Source: Mycolicibacterium smegmatis (GTDB lineage Bacteria; Actinomycetota; Actinomycetes; Mycobacteriales; Mycobacteriaceae). From it: a stretch of 32,000 bases of DNA. The notes beneath the pieces are model-generated. The model did not search any database, was not told the origin of the DNA, and saw only the letters and a list, made by a program, of their open reading frames with translations. A program made the translations under genes and the position numbers. Shown in pieces: positions 16,825 to 32,000 of this stretch. The DNA is taken from positions 5,190,001-5,222,000 of the forward strand of contig NZ_LN831039.1 of the NCBI RefSeq assembly GCF_001457595.1, in the 5' to 3' direction. Position 1 is the stretch's first letter. Each line of letters opens with the position of its first letter.

Positions 16825-18915
16825 ATGCCAGTCGACTGGGTGATCGCTCCTCATGACCGCGCACTCGACGGCGTTGAGGCCGGCCTGCACGAACGCAGCG
16901 GTGCGGTGCTCATGGGCCCCGAAGGCGTCGGCAAGACCTCGCTGGCCCGCAGTGCCGCGGAATGGCTCGGGCCGGAGTTCCGCCGCATCGTGCGGGTGAC
17001 CGGCACCGAGTCCAACGCCGCCGTCCCGTTCGGGGCCGTCGCGAACCTGATCGACGTGTCGCCCTCGGGTCGCACCGCCGACGTGATGCGCGCGGCGCGC
17101 GAGTCCCTGGGTTCCGAGCTTCTTCTCGTGGTCGACGACGCGCATCTGCTCGATCGGTTGTCGGCGGCGCTCGTGTACCAGCTCACCGAGAGCGGCGCGG
17201 CCAAGCTGATCGCCACAGCGACCGTGGACCGCGCTGTGCCAGAAGAGGTCTCGGCGCTGTGGGATGAGGGCCTGCTGGCCCGCGTCGAGGTGTCACCCCC
17301 GGGTTACGACAGTGCGCGCCTGGCCGATCAGGTGGCGGCCTACATCGCCGATCTTCCGCCCGCGGCGATCCAGACGCTGCAGTATCTCGCGGTGCAGGAT
17401 CCGCTGCCGCTGACCGACGTGACAGCGCTGACCTCGGCCGACACCGTGGCCCAGGCGTGCGAGGCCGGTGCGGTGGTCCTCGACGAGGACGCCGAGCAGC
17501 CCATGGTGCACTGCCGTCATGTGCTGTTCCTCAACGCCGTTCGCGCCAACGTCGGCGGCCCCGGTCTCCGGCGCCTGCGCACGGCCGTCGTCGAACAGAT
17601 GGCCAAGACTCCGCGACGTGGTGTGGTGGACCGGTTGCGCCACGCCGTGCTCGCGCTGGACTCCGACGTGGCGGTGCCCACCGAGGACGTCGTCACCGCG
17701 GCCGCGGAGGCGCTGCGACTCGGCGACCTCGAACTCAGCGAGCGACTGGGCCGCGCCGCACTGCAGGTCGACGGCGGGTTCCAGGCACGGCTGACGCTGG
17801 CCTATGCGCTGGGCTGGCAGGGTCACGGACGCGAGGCCGAGGACGTGCTCGCCGAGGTCGATCCCGCGACGCTGGACGAGGCCTCGCTGATGGCGTGGGC
17901 GCTGCCGCGCGCGGCCAACCAGTTCTGGATGCGTTCGGAGCCCGAGCGTGCGGTGGCCTTCCTGCGCACCACGCGCAACCGCGTGCAGACCGCACACGCC
18001 CAGGTCACCCTCGACGCCCTGCTCGCGACGTTCACCATGAACTCTGGAACCCCGTCGCGCGCACTGGAACTCGCACACCAGGTGCTGGAGTCTCCCGACG
18101 CCGACGACACCGCCGTCGGTTGGGCCGCGTCGACCGCCGCGCTCAGTTCGGCGCGCATCGGCCGGTTCGACGACGTCGACGCGCTGGCCCAGCGCGCCAT
18201 CGATGCGGGCCATCCCGGATTGCTGCGGTTCACCAGCGGATTCGGCCAGACCACGTCGCGGCTGCTTCGCGGGTCTCTCGACGAGGCCGAGGTGCTGGCC
18301 CGCCAGCTCACCGATTTCGCGCAGCTGCTGCAACCCGGCCGCGCCATCGGCGAGGTGCTGCTGGCCGACGTCCTCATCGTCCGCGGACAGCTCGACGAGG
18401 CGGTTGCGTTGTTACGCAGGGCCACAGCCACTTTGGCGCCGACCGGGTACTCGTGGGGCCCGCTGGCGTGGATGTTGTTGGCGCAGGCGCTCGGTCAGCG
18501 CGGCATGCCCGTCGAGGCCGGAAAGGTGCTGTCCCGCGCGGAATCCCGGCACGGCCTCAAGTCCATGCTGTTCGCCCCCGAACTCGCACTCGCGCGAGCC
18601 TGGACCTGCTTTGCCCGCAAAGACCCCGTCACCGCCGTTGCCGGGGCCCGCGAGGCCGCGAAAGCCGCCGAGCGTGGCGGGCAGTCCGCAGTCGCGCTGC
18701 GCGCCCTTCACGACGCCGTGCGGCTCGGCGACACCCGCGCGGCCGATGCACTCGCCCGCATCGACCTGACCTGCACGTTCGCCGACGTCACGCGGGCCCA
18801 TGCCGCCGCGCTCACCGCCGGCGACGCTTCCGCGCTGAACGACGTCGCTGCCCGCTACCGCAACCTCGGCATGCACGCCGCCGCAGCCGATGCGCTGCGT
18901 CAGGCGGGTGGGTGA
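16825..18915 (+). CDS. P-loop (STAND/AAA-like) ATPase with long helical-repeat C-terminal region, Rv1204c-like; no LuxR-type HTH detected
   Basis: Walker A GPEGVGKTS and Walker B-like LLLVVDDAHLLD, then about 500 aa of Ala/Leu-rich helical repeats like the sensor arm of LAL/MalT regulators. The protein ends ...AARYRNLGMHAAAADALRQAGG without the usual C-terminal LuxR HTH. Confidence 0.8.
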   Translation: MPVDWVIAPHDRALDGVEAGLHERSGAVLMGPEGVGKTSLARSAAEWLGPEFRRIVRVTGTESNAAVPFGAVANLIDVSPSGRTADVMRAARESLGSELLLVVDDAHLLDRLSAALVYQLTESGAAKLIATATVDRAVPEEVSALWDEGLLARVEVSPPGYDSARLADQVAAYIADLPPAAIQTLQYLAVQDPLPLTDVTALTSADTVAQACEAGAVVLDEDAEQPMVHCRHVLFLNAVRANVGGPGLRRLRTAVVEQMAKTPRRGVVDRLRHAVLALDSDVAVPTEDVVTAAAEALRLGDLELSERLGRAALQVDGGFQARLTLAYALGWQGHGREAEDVLAEVDPATLDEASLMAWALPRAANQFWMRSEPERAVAFLRTTRNRVQTAHAQVTLDALLATFTMNSGTPSRALELAHQVLESPDADDTAVGWAASTAALSSARIGRFDDVDALAQRAIDAGHPGLLRFTSGFGQTTSRLLRGSLDEAEVLARQLTDFAQLLQPGRAIGEVLLADVLIVRGQLDEAVALLRRATATLAPTGYSWGPLAWMLLAQALGQRGMPVEAGKVLSRAESRHGLKSMLFAPELALARAWTCFARKDPVTAVAGAREAAKAAERGGQSAVALRALHDAVRLGDTRAADALARIDLTCTFADVTRAHAAALTAGDASALNDVAARYRNLGMHAAAADALRQAGG

Positions 18916-18987
18916 ATTCGCGCGTTTCGCGGCTTTTGCCCCGCTTTAGACTGATCGTGCCGTATGCGTTTGGGAGGGGGCGCTGCG

Positions 18988-21276
18988 ATGGGTGCGCTTG
19001 ACGGGTTCTATTCGACGTGGAACAAGGCCCGTGAAACCTTCGGGCAGGGAGCGCCGACCGATGGTTCGCAGTTCGACCAGAGCCGCAGCCTCACGCAGAT
19101 GAAGGCCAGCGTCGAGGCCGCCGCGCCCGACGACCGCTGGCAGGGCTCAGGCGCGAACGCCTACGCCGCAGCCAACAAAGAGCACGCGCAGGTCTATCAG
19201 AAGCTCGCCGACCTCGACCAGAAGATGGCCGCCGAGGTCAAGAACGCCGCCAACGTCGTCTCCGCCGGGCGCACGAACCTCGACAACGCCAAGAGCTGGG
19301 TCGAAGGCATGGCCAATTCCCTGCCCGCCACCAGCCAGCAAGACCGCGAACGCAAGCTCATCCCGATTGCCCGCGAAGGCATCAACCGCGTCGACAACAT
19401 CGTCAAGTCCGCGACTGCGGACATGATGGGGATCAAAGGCAACGTCGAAAAGCTCCGCGGCGAGTACGACACCATCAAGACCACGATGCGGTTCGGGCCG
19501 GAAAGTGAGAAGAAGCCCGGCGACAAAAAAGACGACGCTCAGATGCTTGGGAATGAGGAAAAGGACGACGACGGCATCCCCGAGATGCACGCGCCGAGTA
19601 CAGAAGACCAAGCTCGGATGGACGTCGAGCAGGTGCTGTCCGAGGGTGACGGTGGCGCCGCGGAACGTGTGGACGAGGTCCTCAGCTCGATCAAGCCGGG
19701 AGATGAGTTGACTCCCCAACAGGACGCTTATTTGAGCGAGATGCAGCGTCAGCAGAAGGGAATGAGCGTAGAGGATCTCAGAGCCGCCGAACAGCGCCTC
19801 GGTGACCACAAGAACGTCATCGCGGACTCGTGGCAGTTGATGAGTAACGACGATGTCGAATACTCCGCCGGCGCTGGTGACGACAAGAAGGGAGCCGCAT
19901 CTCAGCTGCCCGACAGCGTTCAGAAAGCACTCACGAATGCCGGTGACACATGGCCGATCGGCGACGGCATCGGCCAGCTCCGTTATGAGGGAGACCTCAA
20001 AGCCATCTCGGAGATCGTCAAGGACGGCAATCCGGGTTTCCAGACGGGCACGGAGCTCGACCGCCAGCTCATTGTCGCTGCGGACAAGGCCATGGATGCG
20101 CGCGACATCCCAGGCGGCCAGATCCTCGGTCGGGAATCAACTGTCCAGAGCTTGTTCGAAGCAGTCGACGATGACCACCAGATCATCAACGACCACTTGA
20201 TGGGCAGGAATGGTGTCGACGTTGACGATTTCCTACGCGATGTGAACACGACCGACTGGCCGGATAACGGGAAGGCAGCTGGCTATCTTTTCAGCTGGAC
20301 CAATGAGGCCAGTTCAGGACCTGAGGCTGAGATCGCGGCCCAAACAGCCGATAAATACGCGGAATTCATTGGAGCTCATACGCATGGGGAACCGACGCCT
20401 CAGCCTGACCTATTGAACATCAATGGCCAGACGTTAGGCCAGCTCAACCCTGAACTCGTCCAGCGGTACGCGCATGGACTAATCCCCTATGTGGACGACA
20501 TGGGTGGTATCGGTGACGCGGACAAGTTTGAGATCGACGGTGGTGATCTCCGACGGGACGGATTGATGCCCAATGCAAAGGGGGTCTTCGCAGTGTTAAA
20601 TACGGATCCCGTCGCCGCAACGGAGATCAACGCGCGGGCATACGAGATTGCGATGGAGAGAGAGACTAGCTTCGCGACGAACCCTAAGGATCCTTCGGCC
20701 CAGGCGCATCTTTATGCGGCAGCAACCATGCGAGGTCTGGTCGATGTGGGAGCACACGAGGCGTTCCAAGCCTTCAAAGAGAACGGGTATGACGCGGGAG
20801 TCGATCAGACAGCATGGAAGAAGGCGGGCTTCGATGCCGCTGTGACAGCCGTGAGCACCGGGGCGTCAGTGATTCCCGGGGTGGGTTTCGTTTCCGGCCC
20901 AACGGTTGCACAGATCGGCTCGATCTTCAGCAACGAAATGTTCGATAACGCTCCTCCGCCTGTAGATCGACCTCTTCCGGAAATGTCGACCACACGTGCC
21001 AGCCACCTGATCCTTGATGCGATGCTTGCCGCCGGCAATCCTTTGACCCTCCCCGAAGGATGGGTCGACTACACCGATCCAGAACGTCCTCGTGTCGTCC
21101 AGCCCCCAGGTGTGAACGACGACGTCTATGCCAGCACCATCAACGCACAGGTTGGCGAGCAAAGCGTTGCAGTCGATGCGAAGGGGCCTGACCAGTTCTA
21201 CGCGGACCGCTACAACAATGTCGCTCAAGATATAGACATCCAACACACCCCGCCCCAGGAGGAACGACACCAGTGA
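18988..21276 (+). CDS. 762-aa protein: EspA/EspE-like WxG helical-hairpin N-terminus + charged linker + ~550-aa C-terminal region of unknown function (putative type VII secretion substrate)
   Basis: ATG 18988 is preceded by GGGAGGGGG (18972-18980) at 7 nt; track start 18964 is the alternative. W-Q-G at aa 51-53 (19138-19146) sits in the context RWQGSGANAYAAANKEHAQVYQKLADLDQKMAAEV, which I recognise as EspA/EspE-like (recollection, needs HMM confirmation). K/D/E-rich linker GPESEKKPGDKKDDAQMLGNEEKDDDG. I found no catalytic motif in the remainder. The coding call is solid; the functional call is tentative. Confidence 0.75.
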   Translation: MGALDGFYSTWNKARETFGQGAPTDGSQFDQSRSLTQMKASVEAAAPDDRWQGSGANAYAAANKEHAQVYQKLADLDQKMAAEVKNAANVVSAGRTNLDNAKSWVEGMANSLPATSQQDRERKLIPIAREGINRVDNIVKSATADMMGIKGNVEKLRGEYDTIKTTMRFGPESEKKPGDKKDDAQMLGNEEKDDDGIPEMHAPSTEDQARMDVEQVLSEGDGGAAERVDEVLSSIKPGDELTPQQDAYLSEMQRQQKGMSVEDLRAAEQRLGDHKNVIADSWQLMSNDDVEYSAGAGDDKKGAASQLPDSVQKALTNAGDTWPIGDGIGQLRYEGDLKAISEIVKDGNPGFQTGTELDRQLIVAADKAMDARDIPGGQILGRESTVQSLFEAVDDDHQIINDHLMGRNGVDVDDFLRDVNTTDWPDNGKAAGYLFSWTNEASSGPEAEIAAQTADKYAEFIGAHTHGEPTPQPDLLNINGQTLGQLNPELVQRYAHGLIPYVDDMGGIGDADKFEIDGGDLRRDGLMPNAKGVFAVLNTDPVAATEINARAYEIAMERETSFATNPKDPSAQAHLYAAATMRGLVDVGAHEAFQAFKENGYDAGVDQTAWKKAGFDAAVTAVSTGASVIPGVGFVSGPTVAQIGSIFSNEMFDNAPPPVDRPLPEMSTTRASHLILDAMLAAGNPLTLPEGWVDYTDPERPRVVQPPGVNDDVYASTINAQVGEQSVAVDAKGPDQFYADRYNNVAQDIDIQHTPPQEERHQ

Positions 21277-21960
21277 TGCCACGACTTAGCAGAGGGCTGC
21301 TGGCGCTTTTCCTCCTGGGTTTGCTTGCCGCCTCCGCGTGTAGGGCAGAAGGCGCCGAACCGCCGGAATCACCGCCTGCAGGTTGGCCCGAGTCGTTGGA
21401 TGACTTCACCGTGACGTGGACCGCCGAACCGGGGATCGATTTGACCACTGGTCCAGCAGTTGCGGCGCGGGCTTATATGGAGTCCTACTACCTCGCATAC
21501 CTGACAACCGACGACAAGTACCTGTATCCGGGGTTTGCACAAGCCGTCGACTCCAATCAGGCCGACGGGCCTGATGGCACGGAGAAGCTCTGGCCAGAAC
21601 CTTATCGTCCGAAGACGTGGATTGGTACGGCACGCCATCACATACTGCGAATAGATCAGTCAGGTCGCGACGTCGCAGTTGTGGGTTGTGTGTATTCGTA
21701 CTCGAGCGCCGAGAAGACAGATGCGGGATTCGAAGCCAACATCGGTGGAACCGGACCGGACGCAGGAATTAGCGCGATCCGTATCGGTTTAGAGGCTCCC
21801 GAGAACAGTGCCGATCTTCCAGTACAAGAAGGACCGTCTCGGGCGCCGTTCGAGAATGTATTTGGTGGGTGGAGGGTGACCAATCATCAGGGCGGATTCC
21901 TTGCTACAGCTGAATGGCCGGACCACGCCAAAGACGTCGAACAATGTGTTGCTCAGGCGC
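19400..21960. other. lower-GC, rare-codon block covering the C-terminal ~2/3 of the EspA-like gene and most of the lipoprotein gene
   Basis: Hand counts of printed 60-nt lines inside the block: 19501 = 50%, 20281 = 58%, 20341 = 52%, 21601 = 50%, 21901 = 57% G+C. Outside the block: 18001 = 67%, 19141 = 65%, 22021 = 72%, 22441 = 75%. In-frame TTA/CTA/ATA codons occur here (e.g. cta ttg ... acg tta at 20410-20436; gat ata gac near 21231; cac ata ctg cga ata at ~21637-21651). Such codons are rare in the surrounding genes. Boundaries are approximate. Confidence 0.55.
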
Positions 21961-22085
21961 CAGAACCTCCGGAAGCCCGGACTTTCATCCCGACAAGCCC
22001 GTACCCTCGGTCTGCCTTCCCAGTGCTTCCCGCGACGCCAGGCTGGCCGGCAAAGCCAGATGCACCCACCGACCAGCCCGGCTGA
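21273..22085 (+). CDS. putative secreted lipoprotein of unknown function, translationally coupled to the EspA-like gene
   Basis: Signal peptide MMPRLSRGLLALFLLGLLAASAC with a lipobox-like ASAC (Cys23). GTG 21273 overlaps the upstream stop (GTGA), and ATG 21276 is the alternative. AGGAGGA lies at 21257-21263. Pro-rich C-terminal tail. I recognise no family. Confidence 0.75.
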   Translation: MMPRLSRGLLALFLLGLLAASACRAEGAEPPESPPAGWPESLDDFTVTWTAEPGIDLTTGPAVAARAYMESYYLAYLTTDDKYLYPGFAQAVDSNQADGPDGTEKLWPEPYRPKTWIGTARHHILRIDQSGRDVAVVGCVYSYSSAEKTDAGFEANIGGTGPDAGISAIRIGLEAPENSADLPVQEGPSRAPFENVFGGWRVTNHQGGFLATAEWPDHAKDVEQCVAQAPEPPEARTFIPTSPYPRSAFPVLPATPGWPAKPDAPTDQPG

Positions 22086-22165
22086 GCACGATCAAACTCC
22101 CGCACACCCCTCCCCCAACCCAGCCGTAAAATTGCACCTGGCATGCACGACCCGAGGGGACTCCG

Positions 22166-22981
22166 ATGAACCAGGTGATCGCCAATACCGGCGCCATGAA
22201 CAGCTGGCAGCAGCAGCTGGGTGAGGTCAGCTCGGGTGTCGGCAATCTGCTCAATGGTACTCCCGGCGTCTCCGATGTGATGAACACGCACGGCACCATC
22301 GGGTTCCCGATGCAGAGCGCGTTCGACGCCGCACATGCCGCCCGAGGTGGCGCGATGGGTGCGACGCAGGCCGCGTCGTCGAAGATTTCCGACTTGCTGC
22401 GCCAGGCTGCTCAGGCCTACGAGCGTGGCGACGTCGCCGCGGCCGACGACCTGAAGAAGCGGGCCGAGCAGCTGGAAGGCGCGGGTGCGTCGTCGGCGGC
22501 CGGTGGCAGTGCCGCAGGCAGCGCGGCCTCGGCCGCGAGCAGTGGTGGCCAGGCCGCGTCGCAGATGATGAGCCAATTCGGCCAGATGGCGGGTCAGATG
22601 GCGCAGTCGCTGACGCAACCCATCCAGGGCATGGCCCAGAGCCTCGGCCAGATGCCGCAGCAGATCTTCCAGGGTGTGCAGGGCATCGTGCAGTCCGCCA
22701 CCGAGGGCGCCGGGGGCGGGTTGGAAGCGGCGACGGCCGCCGCAGGTGGCGCCGAGGCCGAGAACGCCATCAAGACCGCCGCGACCGATGGTGCGGGTGG
22801 CGGCGAGGGTGAGCGTGCCCCGGTCGACGCCGCCGACAAAGACAAGACCGACGAGCGCGACAAGACGACCGATGCCGTGCAGGTCGGCGCCCGCGCCGAC
22901 ATCGGCGTGCCGGCCGAGGAGCAGCCGGGTGTCGGCGCGGTGTCGACGCAGATCCCGACGATCAGCCCACGGCCGCAGTAG
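22166..22981 (+). CDS. EspC-like (T7SS_ESX_EspC/DUF2580-type) protein with YxxxD motif and Ala/Gly/Gln/Met-rich low-complexity tail (putative type VII secretion substrate)
   Basis: ATG 22166 with GAGGGGA 5 nt upstream. The N-terminal ~100 aa (...VMNTHGTIGFPMQSAFDAAHAARGGAMGATQAASSKISDLLRQAAQAYERGD...) parallels EspC (...THGPY...LRIAAKIYSEAD...) as I recall it. Y85-E-R-G-D89 (22418-22432) fits YxxxD/E. The tail has QMAGQMAQSLTQPIQGMAQSLGQMPQQIFQG repeats and an acidic end GERAPVDAADKDKTDERDK. Confidence 0.75.
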   Translation: MNQVIANTGAMNSWQQQLGEVSSGVGNLLNGTPGVSDVMNTHGTIGFPMQSAFDAAHAARGGAMGATQAASSKISDLLRQAAQAYERGDVAAADDLKKRAEQLEGAGASSAAGGSAAGSAASAASSGGQAASQMMSQFGQMAGQMAQSLTQPIQGMAQSLGQMPQQIFQGVQGIVQSATEGAGGGLEAATAAAGGAEAENAIKTAATDGAGGGEGERAPVDAADKDKTDERDKTTDAVQVGARADIGVPAEEQPGVGAVSTQIPTISPRPQ

Positions 22982-25900
22982 CGGAGAGTGCGTCCAACGC
23001 GGCTGCGACCTTGCGACGGTAGCTCTCGACGTTGGCCATCTTGATCGACTCGTATCCGCGCACTTCCTGGGCGAGGCCGAGAATTTCGCGGATGGCATCG
23101 ATGTTGCCCTGCGTGGCGCGCGGCACCACCTCGCGGGTCAGCTTCGCGTAGTCGTCGACGAGTGACCGCTCGACCTGACGCACGTGGGCATAGCCGAACA
23201 CGTCCAGTCGGGTCCCCCGAACACGCCGTGCCGTCCGCAAGGCGTACAGCGCCGGCTTGAACCACGCCCCCAAGGTCAGCTTGTGGTCCAGGCCCATCGC
23301 CCGGAGCATCGGCGGGTGCAGTTTGTACGCGAAAGACGCGTCATCGCCGAAGGTTTCACGGACGGACTGTTCGAAGCCCGGATCGAGGAACAGCCGCGCG
23401 GTTTCGTATTCGTCCTTGTACGCCATCAACTTGTACATCGACTCCGCTGCTGTGACGGTGAGCGGCCCGACCGATCCGACGGCGTGGCGCTCCAGCTCGG
23501 CCGTGTCGGCGACGAAGTTCACGAACTGTAGCGCATAGGACTGGTTCTGATAGGCGACAAGGTCGGCGGCCAGAAAGCCGAGGCGGTCCCGGAAACCCTC
23601 GTCGACGCCGCGTAATTCGTGGACGGCGCGACGCACTCGCCGCGCCACTCGGACGTGGTTGGTGTACACCCCTTTCAGAGCGTTGACCGGTTGCGGATCG
23701 TGCACGTACGCGCGGCCGACGTGAAGCGCCCTGAGGTTCGCCGAAACCGCCACCCCGTTGAGTTCGACCGCTTTTTCGAGCGCCGACAGCGGGATGGGCA
23801 GTGATCCAACCTGCACGGCCATACCCACCAGAATCATGTTGGCCAACTGGTCGGATCCGAACTCCCGGTGTGCGAGTGCACGAACGTCGGCGTACAGCGA
23901 ATCGTGCGCCCTGGTGGACGGATCCAGCCGCTCGCGGACCTCGGCGGCCGAGGGGAACGCGGTCGACGGCTTCAGGATCATCGAACCCGTCGGCACCTGG
24001 GATGTCGAGATCACCGCGACGGTACGCGAATTCGACGCGACGGCAAGGCTCTTGGCGTCAGCTGCAACAAGAAGATCGCATCCCAGATACAGATCGCACT
24101 CGTCGGCTGCGAGTTTGTTGGTACCGGTGATGGGGCGTGTCGAGAACTTGAGATCTGACACCACGGCACCGCCCTTCTGGGCGAGGCCGAGCTGGTCGAG
24201 TCCGCGGACGTGGAACCCGGCCAAAGTACCTGCGGTGGCGACGATCTGAGAGGTGGTGACCACGCCGGTGCCGCCGACACCGGTGATGCGGACGTTGAAT
24301 GCGTCGGTGCCGACGATGGGTGTGGGCTCCGGGATGGGACGCGTGGCAGAAGTTTCACTCGATGCCGTACGCCCGGGTCGGACCGCGACGAACGACGGGC
24401 AGTCGCCGTCCAGGCAGGAGTAGTCCTTGTTGCACGAGGCCTGATCGATCCTGGTCTTGCGGCCGAACTCGGTGTCGACTGGCTGCACGGACATGCAGTT
24501 CGACTTCTGTCCGCAGTCACCACAGCCCTCACACAGGCGTTCGTTGATGAACGCGCGAGTGACGGGTTCGGGCGCGAGCCCGCGCTTGCGTTTGCGGCGC
24601 AGTTCGGTCGCGCATTCCTGGTCGTGGATGAGCACGGTGACCCCGGCGGTCGCTGCCAACTGTTCCTGCACCGCCATCAACTCGGACCTGTCGAGAACGG
24701 CGACGCCTTCCGGCAGCGACACCTTGCGGTACTTCTTCACATCGTCGGTGGTGATGACGACGCGGGCGACGCCTTCGGCCAGAAGCTCCTGAACGATCTG
24801 CGGCACCGACATTTTGCCCACGGCGCGTTGTCCACCGGTCATGGCGACCGCGTCGTTGTAGAGCAGTTTGTAGGTGATGTTCACCCCGGATGCGACGGCG
24901 GCCCGGATGGCCAGGCTGCCCGAATGATGGAATGTGCCGTCACCGAGATTCTGGAACAGGTGATTCTCGGACACGAACGGCGCCATGCCGATCCACGGGG
25001 CACCCTCGCCGCCCATCTGGCAGAGACTCACGATCTCCCCCACCCGCTCATGCGGCATCATGGTCGCGATTGCGTGACAACCGATTCCGGCGCCCACAAG
25101 GGACCCGTCGGGAACGACCGTGGACCGGTTGTGTGGGCAGCCGGAGCAGAAGTACGGCGTCCGTGTCAGCAGCGGCAGTTCGATACGCCCCGCGGGTGTT
25201 CTCTCGACCGATGACACGCTCTCGATCTGGTTGGCGGGGAGCACCTTTCGAATTCGCCGGCCGAGCTTCTCGGCGAGGATTTCGGGCGGCAGGTCGGCGT
25301 CGGCGCGCAGGAACCCGCGGCCGTGCTCGTCGCGTTTTCCCAGAACCCGCGGAACGGAGGCCCGTCCGTACAAGGCGTCTTTGACGGCCAACTCGATGAA
25401 CGCCCGTTTCTCTTCGACGACGACCACTTCGTCGAGCCCTTCACTGAACTCTTGGACGTGCCGTTGGTCCAGCGGGTTGATGACACCGAGCTTGAGGATG
25501 CGGATGCCGGAGTGGACCAGATCGGTCTCTGCGATGCCCAGACGCTGCAGCGCCTGCACGGTGTCCCGGAAACCTGTGCCCGCGGTGATGATTCCGAGCT
25601 TGGCGTCCGGGTCGCCGACGGTTCTGTTCAGATCGTTGGCGGCCGCGTACCGACGCGCGAGTTCCAGCCGCTCACCGAACATGCTTCGTTCGAGGTTGCC
25701 GAGCGTCGGTTGCACGAAGTGCGCCGAGACGGTGTGGCGGAATTCGGCGCCGTCGATCTCGCGGTCGGGACTCTGCACCGTGACCCGGCTGCGGTCGAAA
25801 CGAACGGTGGCCGACCCGTCCACGACGTTCGTCGCGAGTTTCATGCCTACCCACAGCCCGCTGAACCGGGACATGGCGATGCCGTGCAGGCCGAAGTCGA

Positions 25901-30825: not shown

Positions 30826-32000
30826 TCAGAACGGTGGGGGTTTGTTGTGTTCGGCGACGAGGTCGTCGTTGAGTTTGCGTTCGGCGGCGATGGTGCGGGC
30901 GGTGTTCTGGGCGCGGGTGCGGCGTCGTTTGGGCATCTTGACCCCGCGCAGGTCGGGGTCGGCGGTAGGGATCGGGGTGGCCGGTAGGTCCAGTGCGCCG
31001 GTGGGTGCGGCCAGTTCGGTGATCGACAGGCGCCGGTGGCTTCCGGGCACAGTGGTGTACTCCCGCCCGGAAGGGGAGGTCCATACGATGGTGCCGTCGG
31101 GGTGTTGTCGGTCTGTCCAGCCGCGGGGGCCGGTCCAGAACGTTTTCAGAAGATGATGAAAACGACACAGACACTTCAGGTTTGAGGCATGCGTGGGCCC
31201 TGCGGGGTAGGGCACGGTGTGGTCGATGTCGCAGCGGTCGGCAGGTTTGTCACATCCGGGGAACCGGCAGGTCAAATCGCGGCAGCGCACATAGTCCGCG
31301 AGCGCGCGTGAGGGGATGTAGCGGTCTTCCGGTGGGGTGTCGCCGGGGTGGATCAGCGGGCGGATGGTGGCGTTGTTGATGATCTCGGCCAGCGCGTAGG
31401 CCGGCAGCACCCCGCCGCCGAACAGCACTGCCGGTGGCACCCGATCCAGGGGCTCCTCGTGCGGGGCGAGGAACGCCGACGGTGTGCCGCTGCTGGTTTC
31501 GGTGAACTCGGCGACAGTGAGGGATCCGGCGTCGCAAAAGGTTCCAGCGGACTCGGCGGTCTCGGTGGCGGTGTCGGTGTCGGCGGCGGGTGCGATACCG
31601 GGGTCGTTCTCGGTGCCCACGGTCTCGGTGTCGGCGGCGGTGTTGTCGGTGGCGGTGTTGCCGGTGTTGTCGGTGTCGGGTTCCCCGTCGGGGGTGGGTT
31701 CACCATAGGTGGGCGGTGCGCTGGTCTGCGCGGCGGCGTGTTGGGCGGCGGTGACGGTGTCTTCGCGGGCGATGACGTGCAAAACGAGGTGTCCGCGGGG
31801 GGATGTTTCGCGGCCGCGCGCACATTCGGGGTCGGCGCACTCACAGGCCAGGGTGGTGTGGTCGAGGATGGCGCCGAGGGCGTCGTGGCGCAGCTCGTTG
31901 AGGGTGCGCGGGTCTTCCGGGCACACCCCTTCGATGAGTTCGGCGATCCGGGCGTCGTAGGCGTTGCCGAGGTCGGCCTGCAGCCGCCCGTTGACCGACA
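30826..32000 (-). CDS. DUF222 + HNH endonuclease-domain protein (REP13E12-type), 5' end outside the window
   Basis: HNH region CRFPGCDKPADRCDIDHTVPYPAGPTHASNLKCLCRFHHLLKTF. The frame stays open upstream of the track start (…ADLGNAYDARIAELIEGVCPEDPRTLNELRHDALGAIL) to position 32000, so the N-terminus is truncated by the window. Thr/Asp/Ala/Asn-rich insert in the middle. Confidence 0.88.
   Translation of the reverse strand, partial: SVNGRLQADLGNAYDARIAELIEGVCPEDPRTLNELRHDALGAILDHTTLACECADPECARGRETSPRGHLVLHVIAREDTVTAAQHAAAQTSAPPTYGEPTPDGEPDTDNTGNTATDNTAADTETVGTENDPGIAPAADTDTATETAESAGTFCDAGSLTVAEFTETSSGTPSAFLAPHEEPLDRVPPAVLFGGGVLPAYALAEIINNATIRPLIHPGDTPPEDRYIPSRALADYVRCRDLTCRFPGCDKPADRCDIDHTVPYPAGPTHASNLKCLCRFHHLLKTFWTGPRGWTDRQHPDGTIVWTSPSGREYTTVPGSHRRLSITELAAPTGALDLPATPIPTADPDLRGVKMPKRRRTRAQNTARTIAAERKLNDDLVAEHNKPPPF

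Follow-up and report, generated by a model that had tools for sequence, protein, structure and literature searches.

Within a 32,000-nucleotide (nt) stretch of the Mycolicibacterium smegmatis chromosome (contig NZ_LN831039.1, positions 5,190,001 to 5,222,000; hereafter the window), three same-strand genes form what is probably a chromosomal modular type VII secretion effector–immunity cassette, as judged from sequence comparison. Gene 1 encodes a giant protein with a predicted export domain and a strain-variable C-terminal domain, gene 2 a lipoprotein, and gene 3 a protein of the EspC family (Table 1). A first-pass annotation of this DNA had described an espACD-like substrate pair with a lipoprotein wedged in between. 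All three open reading frames were found where it had placed them. Its interpretation is supported in part, and only in part because the polymorphic effector–immunity module was missed: the EspA/EspE and EspC assignments stand, whereas the locus is no isolated curiosity but belongs to a family that is widespread in Mycobacteriaceae.

Comparison with the mc2155-type allele of the same species (MSMEI_4963) exposes the modular organization of the locus. In gene 1, amino acids (aa) 1-447 are 100% identical while aa 448-762 share ~62% identity. Identity amounts to 59% between the two lipoproteins and to 99.6% between the two EspC-like proteins. On the DNA level, identity is ~100% up to ~20290, drops to ~60% up to ~22090, and returns to 98-99% from 22092 across gene 3; per 100 nt, it amounts to about 0.43-0.77 inside the variable block, compared to ~1.0 upstream and 0.98-0.99 downstream. 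The transition in gene 1 is sharp and lies at aa ~435-447, where identity falls right past the junction motif DWPDNGKAAGYLFSWTNE, which is located directly 5′ of this second breakpoint.

The first recombination breakpoint, at about nt 19493, is revealed by a third M. smegmatis strain (L086), which switches at this position (aa ~168) to a payload type also found on a metagenomic contig (L004). This contig carries two tandem effectors that have the N-terminal ~150 aa in common and unrelated TPR_23 and C-terminal parts; the second effector, the type shared with L086, is followed by three lipoprotein genes and an EspC-like gene. The L086 payload has a lipoprotein of its own, and an orphan gene 2-like lipoprotein (67% identity) as well as the EspC-like gene (97.8%) are retained. 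Across the three M. smegmatis locus types the N-domain remains 92-100% identical despite differing downstream parts, and gene 3 remains 97.8-99.6% identical in strains with different effector and lipoprotein content. Thus, the strain comparison resolves a constant 5′ export domain (predicted) and a constant 3′ EspC-like gene, with exchangeable payload–lipoprotein modules between them.

The mc2155-type locus (L001) runs from the effector via its cognate lipoprotein, a 322-aa lipoprotein resembling the effector C-region, and a PRiA4_ORF3 gene to ISL3 and IS3 transposases, two more gene 2-family lipoprotein genes, and the EspC-like gene. The PRiA4_ORF3-domain gene and the transposases interrupt the array at L001 12582-16002 (CP102342, CP009495); relative to L004, these insertions appear to have taken the place of a second effector copy and to have truncated a lipoprotein gene (207 aa versus 259 aa). 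Orphan lipoproteins or extra modules downstream of the effector occur in the mc2155-type locus, L004, L086, L062, L035, and others, whereas the window holds a single lipoprotein gene. The G+C content at third codon positions (GC3) is 0.48-0.67 in the variable block against a background of ~0.85-0.93, and because it is low in both the gene 1 C-domain and gene 2, it suggests that the variable module was imported by recombination from a lineage of lower GC content. At gene 1 aa ~150-420, a stretch comprising the linker and the larger part of TPR_23, GC3 is intermediate (0.72-0.77).

The same modularity emerges across species. A scan of species-representative genomes yielded 201 tblastn-confirmed stretches, from which 79 loci with 75 giant genes were retrieved. 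Members of the gene 1 family are ~730-800 aa long, widespread in Mycobacteriaceae, and often present as several paralogues per genome; NCBI names them “EspA/EspE family type VII secretion system effector” or “TPR repeat region-containing protein”. In 47 of the 75 cases, the gene directly 3′ of the effector encodes a gene 2-family lipoprotein and mostly overlaps the effector gene by 4 nt; in 15 further cases it encodes a lipoprotein of another type, so that 62 of the 75 effectors are followed by some lipoprotein. Effectors in tandem and runs of two to four lipoprotein genes recur among the 79 loci, and the window's own gene order (effector, lipoprotein, EspC-like) reappears in L049, L054, L055, L060, and L063.

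Over 51 effector–lipoprotein pairs, the pairwise identities of the lipoproteins follow those of the effector C-domain (Spearman rho 0.83) and of TPR_23 (0.77), and are uncoupled from those of the EspA-like N-domain (0.04, 630 pairs); the partial correlation with the C-domain given TPR_23 is 0.52, all these values being descriptive and ignoring shared ancestry. In many cross-species pairs, N-domains that are at least 90% identical accompany payloads and lipoproteins of 20-40% identity. The lipoprotein is thus not merely wedged between two partners, as had been proposed, but co-varies with the effector C-terminal domain as one exchangeable module. The identity of the EspC-like partner, on the other hand, correlates with the N-domain (rho 0.38) and not with the C-domain payload (-0.02), values that are likewise descriptive and uncorrected for shared ancestry.

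Moreover, the predicted export module and the payload each occur in other combinations. In an M. wolinskyi protein, an N-domain 77% identical to that of the window is joined to Abhydrolase_8 (E=1e-61); its gene overlaps that of an unrelated lipoprotein of 205 aa, after which comes an EspC-like gene whose product is 67% identical to gene 3 (aa 1-175). Conversely, slow growers have a different N-domain, PF22905 “Hydrolase N-terminal helical domain” (E=1.7e-71 in M. colombiense and 3.5e-67 in M. asiaticum, the two proteins tested), in front of the same TPR_23+C payload, together with a lipoprotein of the gene 2 type, and in M. asiaticum a small DUF2563 partner lies upstream of the effector. In phage genomes, the TPR_23+C payload stands behind an unclassified WXG100-like N-domain. 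tblastn against phage genomes retrieved ~750-aa “WXG100-family” proteins of the Mycobacterium phages Aegeus and Baudelaire and of M. abscessus prophages, in cassettes that encode, in order, a small WXG100/EspC-like protein, a giant TPR_23 protein, and a 262-276-aa lipoprotein. Gene 1 aa 230-592 match Aegeus gp35 and prophiFSAT01-1 gp97 (E down to 8e-9), both of which also contain the TPR_23 domain, and gene 2 is 31% identical (E=3e-22) to Aegeus gp34, annotated as “polymorphic toxin immunity protein”. Prophage-borne, type VII secretion system (T7SS)-linked polymorphic toxin–immunity (PT-Imm) cassettes, several of them with lipoprotein immunities, have been described (Dedrick et al. 2021, PMC8092301) and proposed by the authors to aid in vivo growth; one prophage cassette carries a Tde-type DNase payload (Cushman et al. 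2021, PMC8191103). Homologues from hosts that lack ESX-1 (phages of M. abscessus and M. chelonae; host ESX content according to PMC8092301) are devoid of the EspA_EspE N-domain.

In gene 1, whose product is 100% identical to the M. smegmatis protein LTT02_27805 at NCBI, the helical N-terminus scores as EspA_EspE (PF18879, aa 18-100, E=4.4e-26 in Pfam) and contains W51-Q-G, the sole WxG of the protein, both as anticipated by the first-pass annotation. The K/D/E-rich linker it had seen is likewise present as an acidic and Lys-rich stretch at aa ~166-230. The following ~550 aa, which it had been unable to assign, divide into TPR_23 and a conserved, family-specific domain of the last ~320 aa; aa ~440-762 belong to no known family. 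An LXG domain was not found in gene 1 by Pfam. The start codon is most likely the one at 18988 rather than the alternative ATG at 18964, because GGGAGG precedes it by 10 nt and homologues begin with MGALDG. Searching with the N-domain alone returned only short stand-alone EspA/EspE proteins, the fusions having come from the genome scan. Such stand-alone or differently extended EspA/EspE N-domain proteins of 165-290 aa occur in many Mycolicibacterium genomes (P0430-P0443; L026 15200-15937; L084 8001-9146), one with a C-terminal hydrophobic tail and one with a 200-aa C-domain of unknown kind, and may be further payload variants or decayed cassettes.

The EspC-like N-terminus proposed for gene 3 is borne out by PF10824 (T7SS_ESX_EspC, aa 2-98, E=1.6e-24 in Pfam) and by the YxxxD motif Y85-ERG-D89. 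The low-complexity tail that had been noted is rich in Ala, Gly, Gln, Ser, and Met, and precedes an acidic end with ERAPV at aa 216; NCBI names the product “ESX-1 secretion-associated protein”. YxxxD/E is conserved in same-strand EspC-like partner genes of other species. Together, gene 1 with its WxG and gene 3 with its YxxxD plausibly represent a co-secreted pair.

Gene 2 was rightly described as a coupled lipoprotein: its product carries a signal peptide leading to the lipobox A-S-A-C23, and its first codon shares 4 nt (GTGA) with the end of gene 1, a geometry of translational coupling. Of 47 gene 2 homologues, at least 90% retain the lipobox cysteine, and the further invariant cysteines, C139 and C225, are compatible with an extracytoplasmic disulfide. 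Gene 2 matches neither Pfam nor NCBIfam, and sequence searches return many unannotated homologues. Its AlphaFold2 (AF2) model (pLDDT 91.7) consists of one long helix packed against a curved sheet, and the top Foldseek matches are mostly NTF2/ketosteroid-isomerase-like, at weak E-values of 0.075-0.7 and target-length-normalised TM-scores of at most 0.48. One homologue (P0126, 62% identity) is deposited as “Arthrobacter sp. SLBN-53” on a 5.4-Mb contig; this record may be taxonomically mislabelled, because all other organism-named matches are Mycobacteriaceae. An inverted repeat at 21254-21319 pairs the Shine-Dalgarno/start region of gene 2 with its codons 10-16 (minimum free energy -33.4 kcal/mol). 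With z=-1.5 against shuffled sequences, and z=-0.6 for the mc2155 allele, we do not claim it as a regulatory element.

The second lipoprotein type, termed TC-type (~310-330 aa), is the one found directly 3′ of the effector in 15 of the 75 cases. It is a paralogue of the effector's own C-region (28-40% identity), and the similarity begins at the junction motif (DWPDxG..LFxW), present at the N-terminus of these lipoproteins, and omits an internal Gly-rich segment of 20-90 aa. TC-type lipoproteins might confer immunity by mimicry or be Sec-exported paralogues.

The C-domain of gene 1 (aa 435-762) is modelled by AF2 as all-alpha (pLDDT 88.7). The positions invariant in the family are occupied by W, A, N, P, L, F, and G, and because conserved catalytic-type side chains are missing, a conventional enzyme is disfavoured; an activity by binding, or by perturbing the membrane or envelope, is favoured instead. 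A Gly/Ala-rich hairpin at aa 613-648 is moderately hydrophobic (KD19 maximum 1.56) and conserved among close relatives only; the effectors preceding TC-type lipoproteins contain no hydrophobic segment. The idea of a ClyA-like pore-forming domain was therefore set aside and survives as a weak lead at most, as the Foldseek match is insignificant and the hairpin is not conserved family-wide.

Several observations weigh against an effector–immunity cassette. The C-domain, in which that lack of catalytic signatures also counts, matches no recognised toxin family or solved fold (Pfam, PDB, BFVD): Foldseek against the PDB gave nothing significant, the best match being ClyA (E=0.55, probability 0.09), the BFVD fold search gave no match, and sequence-profile searches of the PDB with genes 1-3 gave nothing. 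Across 1.84 billion representatives, a C-domain search yielded 151 clusters at E≤1e-3, in which the domain occupies almost only positions ~440-760 of ~730-800-aa family proteins or occurs in ~300-aa lipoproteins; it thus keeps to a single protein family instead of moving between unrelated trafficking systems. Furthermore, an EspC-like gene was detected within 8 kb of just 24 of the 75 effectors, an immediate-downstream lipoprotein paralogous to the effector C-domain, as in the 15 TC-type loci, is unusual for an immunity protein, and the co-variation carries the limits stated with its coefficients.

With these points in mind, we infer the following scheme, which extends to secretion, to the pairing of the N-domain with the EspC-like protein, to payload–lipoprotein binding, and to toxicity and its target. 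The EspA/EspE-type N-domain of gene 1 with its WxG would pair with the EspC-family product of gene 3 with its YxxxD, and the two would form a bipartite export signal that is read by an ESX system whose genes lie elsewhere. There is a slight preference for ESX-1, as hinted at by the EspA/EspC families and by the absence of an EspA_EspE-type N-domain from the homologues of ESX-1-less hosts; ESX-4 is possible and provides the sole experimental precedent for such export (PMC13444075). The TPR_23 region, and above all the all-helical C-terminal domain of ~320 aa, would be the exchangeable payload. Gene 2, coupled to gene 1, would supply a Sec-exported lipoprotein that binds the cognate payload in an allele-specific manner and thereby neutralises it in the envelope of the producer. 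Neutralisation by an envelope lipoprotein would imply that the payload acts outside the cytoplasm, presumably on the envelope of a neighbouring mycobacterium, and strains with different alleles should therefore antagonise one another.

The best-surviving alternative, though an unlikely one, is that genes 1 and 3 encode mutually dependent ESX-1 substrates in the manner of espACD, the model of the first-pass annotation, with a structural or secretion-promoting role (an EspC-type filament, an EspA-type gatekeeper, for instance), no delivery to other cells, and a lipoprotein serving as envelope anchor or assembly factor. Membership of both proteins in the EspA_EspE and EspC Pfam families, the NCBI name of gene 3, its low-complexity tail with ERAPV, which resembles the C-termini of Esp substrates, and the conservation of precisely the N-domain and the EspC-like partner would all fit such a role. 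A housekeeping secretion factor would, however, not be expected to contain a strain-variable, low-GC3 C-module that co-varies with the next gene, to come with tandem paralogues and orphan lipoprotein arrays, to exchange its C-terminus for an alpha/beta hydrolase, or to travel in accessory cassettes of prophages whose hosts lack ESX-1 (PMC8092301).

A non-lethal function in self/non-self recognition or adhesion appears rather improbable as well. Here, the C-domain and the lipoprotein would act as polymorphic ligand and receptor and so signal strain identity, for instance during aggregation, sorting within biofilms, or the choice of a mate for conjugal transfer. The joint allelic diversification of a domain predicted to be secreted and an envelope lipoprotein is in line with recognition, and neither catalytic-type conserved residues nor a toxin fold contradicts it; in addition, M. 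smegmatis ESX systems are linked to cell-contact responses in work cited by PMC13444075 (its reference 35). Effector-less lipoprotein arrays, and orphans kept after effector replacement, are nevertheless typical of immunity accumulation, a hydrolase payload rides on the same predicted export module, and the phage homologues are located in accessory regions described for toxin–immunity cargo (PMC8092301).

The effector–immunity reading is further backed by the homology of genes 1 and 2 to phage cassettes. Aegeus gp36-gp35-gp34 and prophiFSAT01-1 gp98-gp97-gp96 are related by direct homology and possess three components of matching size: a ~750-aa protein with helical N-terminus, TPR_23, and variable C-terminus, a downstream lipoprotein of ~260-280 aa, and a small EspC/WXG100-like partner. 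They differ from the M. smegmatis locus in that their N-domains do not score as EspA_EspE, and in that their partner is ~110 aa long and encoded upstream, whereas gene 3 encodes 271 aa with a long low-complexity tail and closes the array on its downstream side. Finally, the M. smegmatis cassette occupies a fixed chromosomal site flanked by core genes and is not part of a prophage.

With espACD and EspE–EspF, the locus shares the Pfam families PF18879 and PF10824, the distribution of WxG and YxxxD on opposite partners, and, in the case of espACD, the location far from any ESX locus. Canonical EspA comprises ~390 aa and EspC ~100 aa, with an EspD-like third gene. Gene 1 is about twice as long, owing to TPR_23 and the strain-variable C-domain, gene 3 is extended to 271 aa, a co-varying lipoprotein takes the place of the EspD-like gene, and the locus is polymorphic and modular. 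EspA- and EspC-family proteins are virulence-associated ESX-1 substrates, which, together with the all-helical C-domain, its moderately hydrophobic hairpin, and the in vivo growth benefit proposed for prophage cassettes, would suit an effector against eukaryotic predators or hosts (amoebae, macrophages) that acts, for example, on membranes while the lipoprotein protects the producer or chaperones the effector, but this is very improbable, as within-species allelic co-variation with a self-encoded lipoprotein and the orphan arrays indicate conspecific interactions, the hairpin is not kept in distant family members, and the ClyA fold match is insignificant.

Another relative in design is EatA of M. 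abscessus, a GH183 endo-D-arabinanase delivered in an ESX-4-dependent manner with helical Tap partners and counteracted by the lipoprotein inhibitor EatI (Benedict et al. 2026, PMC13444075), for which a function in interbacterial competition was demonstrated. Compared by description, both systems comprise a large effector with a helical T7SS-targeting N-domain (predicted here), small helical accessory protein(s) (TapA1-TapA2 for EatA), and a downstream lipoprotein to neutralise an envelope-acting payload (proposed here), and both are encoded away from the ESX locus. In contrast to the arabinanase, the payload of gene 1 is an all-helical domain without catalytic signature; EatI, of 16 kDa, adopts a new fold, whereas gene 2 encodes 270 aa with a weak NTF2-like fold signal; and the Tap genes lie upstream, with an N-domain reported among T7SSb-type domains, whereas the M. 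smegmatis locus uses the ESX-1-associated EspA/EspC families. According to the same study, no function is known for roughly half of the T7SS-linked toxins predicted in Mycobacteriales, and lipoprotein immunities mark extracytoplasmic targets.

LXG–Lap–immunity loci of Bacillota (T7SSb; TelC/TipC, TelA-LapA3-LapA4; PMC10801868, PMC6193138) follow the same logic: a constant helical N-domain and small helical partners act as composite signal for a variable payload with a downstream immunity gene, and toxins that act in the cell wall are countered by an extracytoplasmic immunity protein. They differ by their LXG domain, whereas the M. smegmatis locus would depend on a T7SSa of diderm mycobacteria and a partner of the EspC family. 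Contact-dependent inhibition (CDI; CdiA-CT/CdiI) and Rhs arrays show an equally sharp switch from conserved to variable past a junction motif, a C-terminal part (CT) and downstream gene that are exchanged together, an accumulation of orphan modules and immunity genes downstream, and insertion sequence elements in the array. Their proteins and secretion pathway are unrelated, however, and the alternative C-domains of the M. smegmatis family belong mostly to one or few homologous families. The arrangement is probably a chromosomal EspA/EspC-type addition to a recently established class of effector–immunity systems. The earlier remark that no functional description exists is outdated for this class (PMC8092301, PMC13444075) and still holds for this particular family: the literature searched contains no mention of the EspA_EspE/TPR_23 family or of this M. 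smegmatis locus.

Table 1. Features of the cassette and of TC-type lipoproteins. Coordinates refer to the window unless a locus is named.
Feature	Coordinates	Strand	Basis
Shine-Dalgarno-like GGGAGG	18972..18977	+	read from sequence; 10 nt 5′ of gene 1 ATG
Gene 1, 762-aa modular T7SS effector (predicted)	18988..21276	+	EspA-like N-domain, acidic linker, TPR_23, variable C-domain
Constant N-terminal helical export domain (predicted), aa 1-170	18988..19497	+	Pfam, WxG, strain identity
Asp/Glu/Lys-rich linker, aa ~171-228	19498..19671	+	composition; GC3 begins falling here
PF23275 TPR_23 “EspA-like TPR repeats”, aa 229-437	19672..20298	+	Pfam E=8.5e-52
Junction motif DWPDNGKAAGYLFSWTNE, aa 423-440	20254..20307	+	W, D, G, A, L, W columns nearly invariant
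Exchangeable variable block, gene 1 C-domain and whole gene 2	20290..22090	+	identity profile, low GC3
Variable C-terminal payload domain (predicted), aa 448-762	20329..21273	+	all-alpha fold, no known family
Gene 2, 270-aa lipoprotein, candidate cognate immunity/neutralising partner	21273..22085	+	signal peptide, lipobox A-S-A-C23
Gene 3, 271-aa EspC-family partner, constant 3′ end of locus	22166..22981	+	Pfam, motif
TC-type lipoproteins	L001 11212-12180 (mc2155-type), L013 10190-11116, L015 10255-11187, L029 10205-11131, L070 10271-11218, others		

The window is syntenic with the htrA-sigE … glgC … folP2-fadD6-Rv1205-Rv1204c … dapE-dapD region of M. tuberculosis. In agreement with the first-pass annotation, which had seen no ESX machinery nearby, no ESX core, MycP, Esx, or PE/PPE genes are found among the likely genes of the window. 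Directly upstream of the cassette lies an AAA_22/TPR gene (16825-18915) for an Rv1204c-like STAND-type ATPase, part of which weakly matches the LuxR-family regulator AbsR2 in NCBIfam; inside this gene, DNA identity among M. smegmatis strains is 90-97% at 16900-17800 and 99-100% in the flanks. On the other side, the 3′ end of gene 3 overlaps by 20 nt (22962-22981) with the 3′ end of a convergent gene for a 1188-aa, indolepyruvate-ferredoxin-oxidoreductase-like POR/DUF6537 protein, and no terminator-like site lies between the two. Scans of 18700-23200 returned zero promoter-like sites and no terminator-like sites above shuffle expectation anywhere meaningful, and the repeat search found short repeats at chance level and nothing else. 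Searches of PHROGs, PADLOC, and NCBIfam with genes 1-3 gave no match. At the window edge, an open reading frame on the minus strand (30826-31926) encodes a DUF222 domain and is unrelated to the cassette; in mycobacteria, DUF222 is a frequent companion of HNH endonuclease “13E12-type” repeat proteins.

Interbacterial toxin delivery by a mycobacterial T7SS was demonstrated only in 2026, for one enzyme, EatA. The M. smegmatis locus offers a tractable model case, with at least three natural locus types at one site, clear breakpoints, and cognate as well as orphan lipoproteins; mc2155 and window-type strains are predicted to be mutually non-immune. It is conceivable, and we propose it only tentatively, that the EspA/EspC module is a generic adaptor for interchangeable anti-mycobacterial payloads in environmental mycobacteria, and that gene 1 contains a new non-enzymatic, envelope-targeting toxin fold. 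The payload would then be neutralised by an NTF2-like lipoprotein or, at other loci, by a toxin-mimicking lipoprotein, and ESX-1, beyond ESX-4 alone, would mediate antagonism between M. smegmatis strains. Descent of espACD from an interbacterial-competition cassette would also be suggested. The payload could indicate a new vulnerable target in the mycobacterial envelope, and the EspA/EspC-family export module would tie a classic virulence operon of M. tuberculosis to the toxin-delivery logic of Firmicutes.

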